Shown here piece by piece: positions 1 through 5,659 of a DNA stretch of 64,000 bases (positions are counted from its first letter, which is position 1; each line of letters starts with the position of its first letter). Source of the stretch: a virus; IMG/VR virus record IMGVR_UViG_3300017917_002795, positions 1 through 64,000 of that record; one strand, given 5' to 3'. Below the pieces are notes generated by a model. The model saw nothing but the letters and a program-made list of their open reading frames with translations. It was not told the DNA's origin and searched no databases. A program made the position numbers and the translations under genes.

Positions 1-100
1 AGACGCTAACTCGCAGATTGATAAAGTGGTGATACGGCAGAAGTTCGTATTCAATCGTATAAGAACCATCACTATACAGGTTCGAATCCTGTCCTGACTA
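1..100 (+). ncRNA. tRNA-like RNA copy 1 (5' end cut by window)
   Basis: D-arm end AGACGC, T-arm ACAGG-TTCGAAT-CCTGT and acceptor 3' strand CCTGACT-A, as in three other copies. Middle stem AGTGGTG/CATCACT; no canonical anticodon arm. Confidence 0.7.
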
Positions 101-679: not shown

Positions 680-687
680 ATATTTAT
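680..687 (+). promoter_or_regulatory. Putative late promoter ATATTTAT
   Basis: The same 8-mer precedes about 20 late or structural units in the window. Confidence 0.6.
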
Positions 688-1069
688 TCATGATAGTACC
701 TACCACGCTTTGGATTTGGGTGTCCCAGGTCGGCGTACCAGGGTAGGTCTTTTGCCCCACCGTTAGGCGCGCTAACGGAACCCTCTAGTTCTCCGGTTCT
801 AGAGTATAGTTCTTTACCTTTGGTACGGAATTTATAAAGGTTTTGTGCATTGAACCCGTAATCAATGTAACGCCACCCTGTGAATAGAATTCATAGGCTA
901 AGTACCATCGGGCATACCGTTAGATCTGCTCACTTAGATGGTCTTTTTTGATATCGGGAAATTGGACCTGCTTTATGGGTGCACGACGGTGCCTTCATGA
1001 ACAACCTTATAACCGGTATCGCCCCTTAGTAAGCCTGCTTGATCAACAGACACTGCTAAGGGTTTTTTT
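687..1069 (+). ncRNA. Large structured ncRNA candidate A
   Basis: No ORF of 60 aa or more, GC-enriched, at least 7 stems closed by TTCATGA/TCATGAA; late motif upstream, terminator downstream. Confidence 0.65.
1023..1069 (+). terminator. Intrinsic terminator
   Basis: CCCTTAGT...GCTAAGGG followed by T7. Confidence 0.6.
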
Positions 1070-4981: not shown

Positions 4982-5659
4982 ATGTCTAATGTTATATGTG
5001 TATATAAAATCATTTCGCCAAATGGTAATACATATATAGGTAGTACCATCAATCTTAAACGAAGATTAGCTGAACATAAAAAACATCCAGGTTGTCGTAG
5101 ATTACATTTTTCTATAGAAAAATATGGATGGGAAAATCATATATGTGAAGTTATTCAACATTGCAATATTGACGAATTGCGTGATTTAGAATCAAAATAT
5201 AAACAAATGTTTATCGATGAATATGGATGGGAGAAAGCATTGTTTTTTCAGATCGATGATAGGAGTTGTTATATCGCTCCAGAGGATTTTTCAGAAAAGA
5301 TGCGTAGACTTGCATTAGAAAATTGGAAGAAAAACCCATCGATGGGGTTTACGGGTAAAAAACATACTAAAAAAAGTAATATACAACGTGTTAATACTAA
5401 ACGTTTAAATGGTACTGATAAAGTTTCTGCAGAAACCCGGAAAAAAATATCTCAAGGTAATTTAGGTAAACGGATGAGCGATGACACGAAACAAAAAATA
5501 TCTCAATCTAAATCTGGAGTTAAATTATCTGCAGAACATGTAGCAGCACTGCGCGCAGCAAAAAGACCACAAAATGTAATTACATGTCCTCATTGTCAAA
5601 CGTCTGGTGGAAATGCAATGCATCGTTGGCATTTTAATAATTGTAAAAATAAAAATTAA
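4982..5659 (+). CDS. Free-standing GIY-YIG homing endonuclease with NUMOD3-like repeats and C-terminal Zn finger
   Basis: VYKI...YIGST...RRLAEH; repeats ETRKKIS / DTKQKIS / HTKKS; CPHC...HFNNC. Confidence 0.9.
   Translation: MSNVICVYKIISPNGNTYIGSTINLKRRLAEHKKHPGCRRLHFSIEKYGWENHICEVIQHCNIDELRDLESKYKQMFIDEYGWEKALFFQIDDRSCYIAPEDFSEKMRRLALENWKKNPSMGFTGKKHTKKSNIQRVNTKRLNGTDKVSAETRKKISQGNLGKRMSDDTKQKISQSKSGVKLSAEHVAALRAAKRPQNVITCPHCQTSGGNAMHRWHFNNCKNKN

Follow-up and report, generated by a model that had tools for sequence, protein, structure and literature searches.

A modular RNA in the tRNA cluster of an uncultured phage carries two probable homologues of Bacteroidota AbiD/AbiF leader hairpins

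The RNA gene, its boundaries and its fold

We analysed the first 64 kb (64,000 nucleotides (nt), hereafter the window) of IMG/VR record IMGVR_UViG_3300017917_002795, a 140.6-kb record of an uncultured phage that is approximately 83% complete; all positions below are window coordinates. Positions 693-1069 are a single phage RNA gene on the + strand. The gene is approximately 380 nt long and lies inside a phage tRNA cluster, where it is flanked by a tRNA-like gene (513-621) on one side and by a small open reading frame (ORF) and tRNA-Ser (1093-1332) on the other. Two of its hairpins, modules A and G, are very probably homologues of the leader hairpins that precede AbiD/AbiF toxin genes in Bacteroidota, and the RNA may serve the phage as a mimic of the antitoxins of these systems.

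The first-pass annotation had described this stretch as free of ORFs, enriched in G+C (GC), and running from a late motif to a terminator, and these features were observed, the motif and the terminator as candidate signals. The longest ORF within 680-1075 did not exceed 46 amino acids (aa), and the GC content was 0.42-0.50 compared to 0.33-0.37 in the flanks. The motif ATATTTAT precedes the first hairpin, and a CCCTTAG/CTAAGGG hairpin followed by T7 closes the stretch (Table 1). The transcript is predicted to start, probably, just 3' of ATATTTAT and to end at this hairpin-U7 terminator. The region 622-1075 folded with a minimum free energy of -143.3 kcal/mol (z = -3.96), and equally good folds were obtained in 0 of 100 shuffles. 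No hallmark of tmRNA, RNase P or a group I intron was seen, as annotated.

The occurrence of ATATTTAT across the window was then counted. It was found 34 times, compared to 16.6 expected (34 was reached in 0 of 100 shuffles), and 28 of the 34 copies were on the + strand. Since the motif precedes tail-fibre and baseplate genes, as well as other genes, by 13-27 nt, a late-type reading is plausible, and ATATTTAT is probably a late-type phage promoter. Its sites include 680, 1078, 4961, 21284, 49428, 51432, 58378, and 61788, of which that at 1078 lies 3' of module T. A simple promoter and terminator scan of 450-1350 gave no flags; module T went unflagged in the consensus terminator scan because its stem has an internal loop.

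Eighty related phage loci were gathered via the downstream metallophosphatase gene. As the anchor is a neighbouring protein gene, this sample is unbiased by the RNA itself. Homologues of the RNA were present in approximately 24 of the 80 loci, with 72-88% identity and always on the strand of the anchor gene. In a search against Rfam at the gathering score and at E values up to 10, cmscan reported only tRNAs in the window, and blastn against GenBank phages gave no match with the region, with the region plus 8 kb of flank, or with the stand-alone hairpin. The annotated structured RNA in the tRNA cluster is thus conserved on the + strand and belongs to no Rfam family found.

The fold that emerged from the homologues is a string of local hairpins, designated modules A, B, C, D, E, F, G, H, and T. 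In a 12-phage alignment of the full unit, 95.8% of the cells pair under this chain, and 40 of 93 pairs show compensatory changes. None of 500 shuffles matched it, and versions of the chain slid by 1-3 columns paired in only 33-38% of the cells. Similarly, for F-G-H-T in 18 sequences, 29 of 50 predicted pairs were retained through two-sided changes. The + strand is favoured because of the many G-U pairs and the better folding energy. The homology is arranged in blocks, and modules are present, absent or re-ordered among relatives. For example, B-E are missing in several relatives, A is joined directly to H in one phage locus (L004), and the RNA begins at F or B immediately after a tRNA in two others (L025 and L053), while further phages carry F-G only or G-H-T only. 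Taken together, comparative sequence evidence indicates that the RNA is a conserved, structured, non-coding chain of independent hairpins. A coding reading was rejected in view of the compensatory substitutions within stems and the shortness of the ORFs, and a repeated or CRISPR-like element was rejected since the RNA is present in a single copy in the phage record.

This architecture bears on the proposal of the first-pass annotation that the RNA is one large ornate molecule with a global tertiary fold, of the kind represented by GOLLD and ROOL. The length of the RNA, its many conserved hairpins and its place beside phage tRNA genes speak for such a molecule; GOLLD and ROOL are likewise non-coding, hairpin-rich, and phage-encoded beside tRNA genes, with function unknown (bioRxiv 10.1101/2024.12.08.627333). 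In addition, GGUU in the module C loop and AACC in module H could pair, and palindromes recur in the variants of the module T loop. The window RNA is, however, much smaller and modular, matches no Rfam family even at E values up to 10, and gains, loses or re-orders its modules between relatives. The long-range helices did not hold up either. The annotated closing helix, TTCATGA(687)/TCATGAA(995), paired in 55% of the cells in 12 phages, and its 995 arm pairs locally in module H. For GTACCATCG/CGACGGTGC, whose true coordinates are 902-910 and 984-992, 61.6% of the cells paired and 193 of 500 shuffles did equally well; this helix is unsupported, and both of its arms belong to covarying local helices. 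Over the whole set of annotated long-range pairs, 47.1% of the cells paired compared to 44.7% when the set was slid by one column. Neither the closing helix nor the 902/984 helix was better than controls. Of the two suggested loop contacts, CCGGTT/AACCGG retains a possible GGUU/AACC pairing in which both sides are invariant, with AACC invariant even where module C is missing, and TACGG/CCGTA was checkable in 3 sequences only. We therefore consider a GOLLD- or ROOL-like fold very improbable. The local part of the annotated structure fared better: six local stems hold up, being conserved and showing compensatory changes, namely ACCTACC/GGTAGGT, those listed for modules B, C, E, and F in Table 1, and CCTTT/AAAGG, although the last is drawn more accurately as CTTTA/TAAAG.

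Modules A and G and the bacterial AbiD/AbiF leaders

Module A consists of an outer and an inner stem, an extended apical hairpin (713-731), a 3' bulge ACCAG (737-741), and a CUUUU tail. Compensatory changes were detected across 14 phages in both its outer stem and its apical hairpin, and when folded alone, the module reached -25.2 kcal/mol with a z score of -3.08. Module G carries an 18-nt apex, a 3' bulge UCACUUA (930-936), and a CUUUUUU tail. Across 18 sequences, the apex of module G was invariant while the stems covaried, and the module occurs once in the 140.6-kb record.

The exact 18-nt apex, GCATACCGTAAGATCTGC, was also found in at least 120 bacterial genome stretches, nearly all of them from Bacteroidota. 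The bacterial hairpins sit 3' of a TAnnTTTG promoter. Of 122 instances, 90 are followed by an AbiD homologue that begins at a median distance of 26 nt 3' of the hairpin, and 8 by HsdR instead; the distance from the hairpin to the toxin gene is 18-103 nt. The downstream protein matched Pfam Abi_2 (4e-55), PADLOC AbiD (5e-68), and PDB 8VZ6, a Prevotellaceae AbiF (1.9e-37), and the closer AbiD clades matched 8VZ6 at 8.7e-73 and 6.2e-61. The usual place of the hairpin-AbiD unit is within a type I restriction operon, flanked by hsdS and hsdR (e.g., L222:2779-7965 and L216:6382-7998). In 8 bacterial cases, the hairpin was observed directly 5' of hsdR without AbiD. Two bacterial loci, L225 and L237, contain two hairpins each, 1.8-2.5 kb apart, which bracket the abiD cassette.

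A sample independent of the RNA was obtained by screening 301 Bacteroidota genomes for Abi_2 alone. The gene was present in 27 genomes, and most of these Abi_2 genes had an A-, A2- or G-type hairpin just upstream. The G-type leader is defined by the 18-nt apex. The A-type leader reads GUAC, outer stem, ACGCU, a loop such as CCCGUMAGAWC, AGCGU, a bulge such as CCCAG or ACCAG, outer stem, and GUCUUUUGC. The A2 type is a close variant of A and goes with the clade nearest PbAbiF, and a third, different kind was designated T3. In a 27-protein tree, the leader type tracked the AbiD protein clade with high support (A 97/97, A2 100/100, and G 100/100); as relatedness alone can cluster leader types, this match is used descriptively only. 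At L252:5942-7999, the same place as L325, a single bacterial genome carries two AbiD genes in tandem, of which the first follows an A-type leader and the second a G-type one. The bacterial leaders matched no Rfam family (12 loci at the gathering score and the L222 leader at E values up to 10). The abiF motif RF03085, in particular, was found by cmscan neither in the window nor in the tested bacterial leader at E values up to 10, which indicates that the Bacteroidota hairpin is not covered by the RF03085 model.

To compare the phage and bacterial hairpins, we used two models from which the window was left out, R1 from 12 bacterial A-type AbiD leaders and R2 from 33 bacterial G-type leaders. 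R1 matched both modules and R2 matched module G (Table 1), and these matches at A and G were the best in the 64 kb on both strands. R1 also matched the 80 phage loci at 23 places, each of them on the + strand. The leader set of R1 was gathered independently of the RNA. That of R2 was gathered by the exact apex, so for module G only the flanks and the stem count as independent evidence. On these grounds, modules A and G are, with high confidence, homologues of the Bacteroidota AbiD/AbiF leader hairpins.

Table 1. Positions of the RNA modules, the promoter-like motif and the leader-model matches in the window
Feature	Positions	Strand	Description
Promoter-like motif ATATTTAT	680-687	+	8-12 nt 5' of the first hairpin; same place in relatives
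Module A, AbiFr-like, 'A type'	693-753	+	outer stem 698-704/742-748; inner stem ACGC/GCGT 705-708/733-736
Module B	760-778	+	hairpin CCGTTAG/CTAACGG; accessory, missing in several relatives; 5 of 7 pairs compensatory, 8 phages
Module C	783-804	+	hairpin CTCTAG/CTAGAG, loop UUCUCCGGUU; accessory; 100% of cells pair, 4 phages with this variant
Module D	812-840	+	hairpin CTTTA/TAAAG with inner hairpin; accessory; in the window, L009, L010, and L003
Module E	846-869	+	hairpin TGCATTGA/TCAATGTA, loop ACCCGUAA; accessory; 100% of cells pair, 3 phages
Module F	877-897	+	hairpin CCTGTGAA/TTCATAGG; 100% of cells pair, 4 of 8 pairs compensatory
Module G, AbiFr-like, 'G type'	899-949	+	outer stem 904-909/937-942; 18-nt apex 912-929 (GCAUACCGUUAGAUCUGC)
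Module H	950-1020	+	long hairpin; invariant internal loop GGGAA / UAUAACC, variable inner hairpin; covariation in helices 11-13
Module T	1023-1069	+	terminator-like hairpin CCCTTAG/CTAAGGG + U7; inner hairpin loop UUGAUCA
R1 match	693-753	+	49.4 bits, E 1.4e-10
R1 match	899-947	+	23.9 bits, E 1e-3
R2 match	900-953	+	25.1 bits, E 1.7e-3

In viral contigs, the G apex was found in four contexts: as a lone hairpin with a U-run after a stop codon, in an approximately 75-nt F+G unit behind a Bacteroidota-type TAnnTTTG promoter, in approximately 135-nt G-H-T units, and in long forms like the window RNA. In many cases, tRNA genes of the same strand are 0-15 nt away from it. The variety of these contexts, together with the bracketing of abiD cassettes in type I restriction-modification operons (L225 and L237), could point to an element that acts at the DNA level, such as an attC-like hairpin recombination site or another single-stranded DNA signal at cassette junctions. 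Nevertheless, the promoter motifs stand at a fixed distance upstream, U-runs follow downstream, and the element is always on the sense strand. The G-U pairs would be C-A mismatches on the opposite strand, the phage has a single copy, and the bacterial homologue has been proven to act as an RNA partner of AbiF (PMC12737573). A DNA element is thus the least probable of the explanations weighed here.

Accessory and phage-only modules

The remaining modules, B-F and H-T, were compared with bacterial sequences. Module F stands 5' of G in most phage versions, and a second variant of module C occurs in other phages. Module H folded alone reached -24.8 kcal/mol (z -3.30). In module T, compensatory changes were found at 4 of the 7 pairs of the outer stem and at 3 of the 4 pairs of the inner stem, and in several relatives a tRNA gene begins 0-1 nt after its U-run. 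The inner hairpin of module T (window 1036-1049 and relatives) has a loop that includes a palindrome in every variant, namely UGAUCA, GACGUC, and UAGCUA. Loop-loop dimers could form through such a palindrome, or its origin may be a palindromic site in the DNA.

A model of H-T, R3, was built from 16 other phages, with the window sequence left out of the build. As a positive control, R3 matched window 947-1067 with 66.1 bits (E 1.4e-10). It gave no match in 98 bacterial AbiF loci nor in 151 Bacteroidota genomes. Within the searched sets, the H-T domain therefore appears to be a conserved RNA found only in phages. When the whole RNA was searched by BLAST against 401 Bacteroidota genomes, only short chance matches within genes were obtained. 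With single modules, nhmmer returned only A-type hairpins and one D-E-like element, and the T profile returned nothing; bacterial counterparts of B, C, F, H, and T were found by neither BLAST nor nhmmer. The D-E-like element (L269:2595-2690, on a contig of a metagenome-assembled genome) has its own TAnnTTG-like promoter and a U-run and is convergent with the PDC-M04A/B candidate defence genes. It is the sole bacterial counterpart found for modules besides A and G. B-F and H-T may act as a stabiliser or a transcription terminator, or may bind further targets. A reading of module T as a copy of the T3 leader was dropped, since the resemblance was in general shape only, with no sequence support. 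Likenesses of G to the L11-binding region of 23S rRNA and of H to the direct repeats of Cas13b were considered and dropped as well.

Several further features were observed around the RNA and its relatives. In six phage loci (L086, L103, L148, L154, L164, and L172), composite RNAs between tRNA genes carry a G apex in the class 'UCGAAA ... AAUCGUUAG', and in five others (L083, L118, L140, L151, and L173), composite phage RNAs combine a G apex with a module H variant containing GAAUAGCCCAAGGCAUAAG. The tRNA-like genes at window 1-100 and 513-621, and those in L004, L025, L056, L143, L147, and L161, have constant acceptor and T arms (AGTCAGGTGG ... CAGGTTCGAATCCTGTCCTGACTA), whereas a variable insert of 30-60 nt replaces the anticodon and variable arms. 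They scored 37.4 bits with the Rfam tRNA model, were missed by ARAGORN, and adjoin the AbiFr-like RNA in several relatives. A 225-aa ORF at window 4982-5659, a few kb from the tRNA/RNA cluster, matches phage homing endonuclease families (PHROG 314, 1e-21).

Orphan status, proposed role and comparison with known systems

AbiF/AbiD proteins are HEPN RNases, and each is paired with a small RNA encoded in cis, AbiFr, in a toxin-antitoxin system that resembles type III. AbiFr binds each AbiF monomer, a single-stranded bulge blocks the active site, and the AbiF family is regarded as the ancestor of Cas13 (PMC12737573, PMC12948488). AbiFr is the antitoxin of PbAbiF, and the complex is PDB 8VZ6 (Zilberzwige-Tal 2025, as cited in PMC12737573). 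For PbAbiF, the RNA is described as inhibiting the RNase activity of the toxin and as being processed by it (PMC12737573).

Searches of the 140.6-kb record turned up no Abi_2 gene, and tblastn did not find AbiD in the window. Given this result, the window RNA is an orphan homologue and not a cognate antitoxin. Among approximately 200 viral loci, AbiD was found beside the hairpin in one (L132). If the RNA were instead the cognate antitoxin of the phage's own AbiF, encoded outside the 140.6 kb, the two would form a complete phage-borne defence or addiction module. The incompleteness of the record leaves space for such a gene, and there are phages and prophages that carry complete AbiF systems, such as L132 and phi027 of Clostridioides difficile (bioRxiv 10.1101/2025.04.15.648962). 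In bacteria, however, the toxin gene lies 18-103 nt after the hairpin, whereas here more hairpins, a 50-aa ORF, and a tRNA follow, and apart from L132 the approximately 200 related viral loci are orphan in the same way. A cognate module is hence improbable.

Since the phage record yielded no AbiF gene, antitoxin mimicry is the most likely mechanism. We put at roughly 0.6 the probability that the RNA is an orphan antitoxin mimic aimed at two AbiF clades, in the manner of pseudo-ToxI of phage PhiTE. During infection, the phage would supply stable AbiFr look-alikes of two cognate types. As host transcription fails and the host's own AbiFr decays, these look-alikes would hold two clades of host AbiF nucleases in the inhibited state, and the sustained inhibition would block abortive infection. 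We infer the transcription of the RNA, its timing, AbiF binding, the antidote effect, and the roles of B-F and H-T from the sequence. The position in the tRNA cluster may result from co-processing by the enzymes that mature tRNAs, or from a role shared with the tRNAs in countering defences that cut RNA.

A broader form of this proposal can be offered only tentatively. The whole RNA might be a multivalent, RNA-only counter-defence array in which every module would serve as decoy for its own RNA-binding defence nuclease: A and G would be decoys for two AbiF clades, and H-T and B-F would address other partners, possibly further HEPN or Cas13-related effectors. Such an array would be co-transcribed and processed with phage tRNAs that replace the tRNAs cut by the same nucleases, and its modules would be shuffled to follow host defences.

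The phage could also use AbiFr homologues for ends of its own, namely as a terminator, an RNA stabiliser or a site for a phage protein, and the bacterial AbiF leader would then be the copy, one that senses infection. Bidnenko and colleagues are said to have found in 2009 that a phage protein activates translation of the Lactococcus abiD1 mRNA, which would fit this view. The G hairpin with its U-run stands alone right after a stop codon in many phages, much like a terminator, and the H-T domain is conserved in phages only. Nevertheless, a terminator role leaves unexplained both the invariant 18-nt apex on covarying stems and the presence of one copy per genome. The leader types track AbiD clades, as expected of recognition between toxin and RNA. 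Moreover, in the solved PbAbiF complex, it is the toxin itself that binds the RNA (PMC12737573). Use of the hairpins for the phage's own ends is therefore unlikely.

Several observations weigh against antitoxin mimicry. The extended hairpin of module A replaces the usual apical loop, and the same arrangement was seen in one bacterial leader (L329). The 3' bulge of module G is absent from bacterial G-type leaders, and the model scores for this module are moderate. In some phages, the hairpin serves as a plain terminator. For B-F and H-T, about half of the RNA, no AbiF link emerged, and no bacterial counterpart was found apart from the D-E-like element. The motif ATATTTAT looks late, later than expected for counter-defence; this objection is qualified by versions in other phages that are driven by host-type TAnnTTTG promoters. 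A record that is approximately 83% complete leaves room for an AbiF gene elsewhere in the phage, and the direction of mimicry is not readable from sequence.

AbiF, a HEPN suicide nuclease, is widespread, and how a small RNA controls it became clear only in 2025. If Bacteroidota phages routinely carry toxin-less copies of this RNA as mimics, they would represent only the second case of antitoxin-RNA mimicry after ToxI/pseudo-ToxI, and the first directed at the AbiF/Cas13 lineage, with two toxin clades as targets. Such mimicry would also give one reason why some structured RNAs sit in phage tRNA clusters and would make a naturally occurring scaffold for inhibitors of AbiF-type RNases available. 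The Bacteroidota leader hairpin is, in addition, missing from Rfam.

Compared with the bacterial AbiFr leaders of Bacteroidota, modules A and G share the 5' AGUAC flank, the covarying outer stem, and the short inner stem. The apical loop CCGUWAGAUC is found in module G, and module A has an extended apical hairpin as in L329; both modules have a 3' single-stranded bulge and a GUCUUUU tail. In contrast to AbiFr, the phage RNA has no AbiF gene following it and none found in the record. It also joins two hairpin types and seven other hairpins in one predicted transcript, with its own promoter motif and the phage-only H-T domain, and it lies in a tRNA cluster instead of a defence island.

RCd22, encoded by the C. 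difficile prophage phi027, is a structured hairpin RNA that neutralises an Abi_2 toxin (bioRxiv 10.1101/2025.04.15.648962). Like the window RNA, it combines two motifs in one RNA. It is active in trans, and it has a terminator at its end, for which module T is the candidate in the window RNA. Unlike the window RNA, RCd22 precedes its toxin gene. In the literature searched, we found no account of Bacteroidota phages with AbiFr copies that lack a toxin gene; a review (PMC12197685) goes no further than to note that the Rfam abiF motif has been annotated in a cyanophage, and assigns it no function.

The closest parallel in mechanism is pseudo-ToxI of Pectobacterium phage PhiTE, a phage RNA that resembles a type III RNA antitoxin and suppresses the RNase of an abortive-infection system (PMC3475682). 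Its toxin, ToxN, is not an HEPN/Abi_2 protein, and pseudo-ToxI consists of tandem 36-nt repeats, whereas the window RNA has two diverged hairpins. The escape of PhiTE was shown by genetics. In both, the phage RNA resembles a host antitoxin, and in the record examined here the toxin gene was not found; by analogy, the mechanism proposed for the window RNA would be the same as that of pseudo-ToxI.

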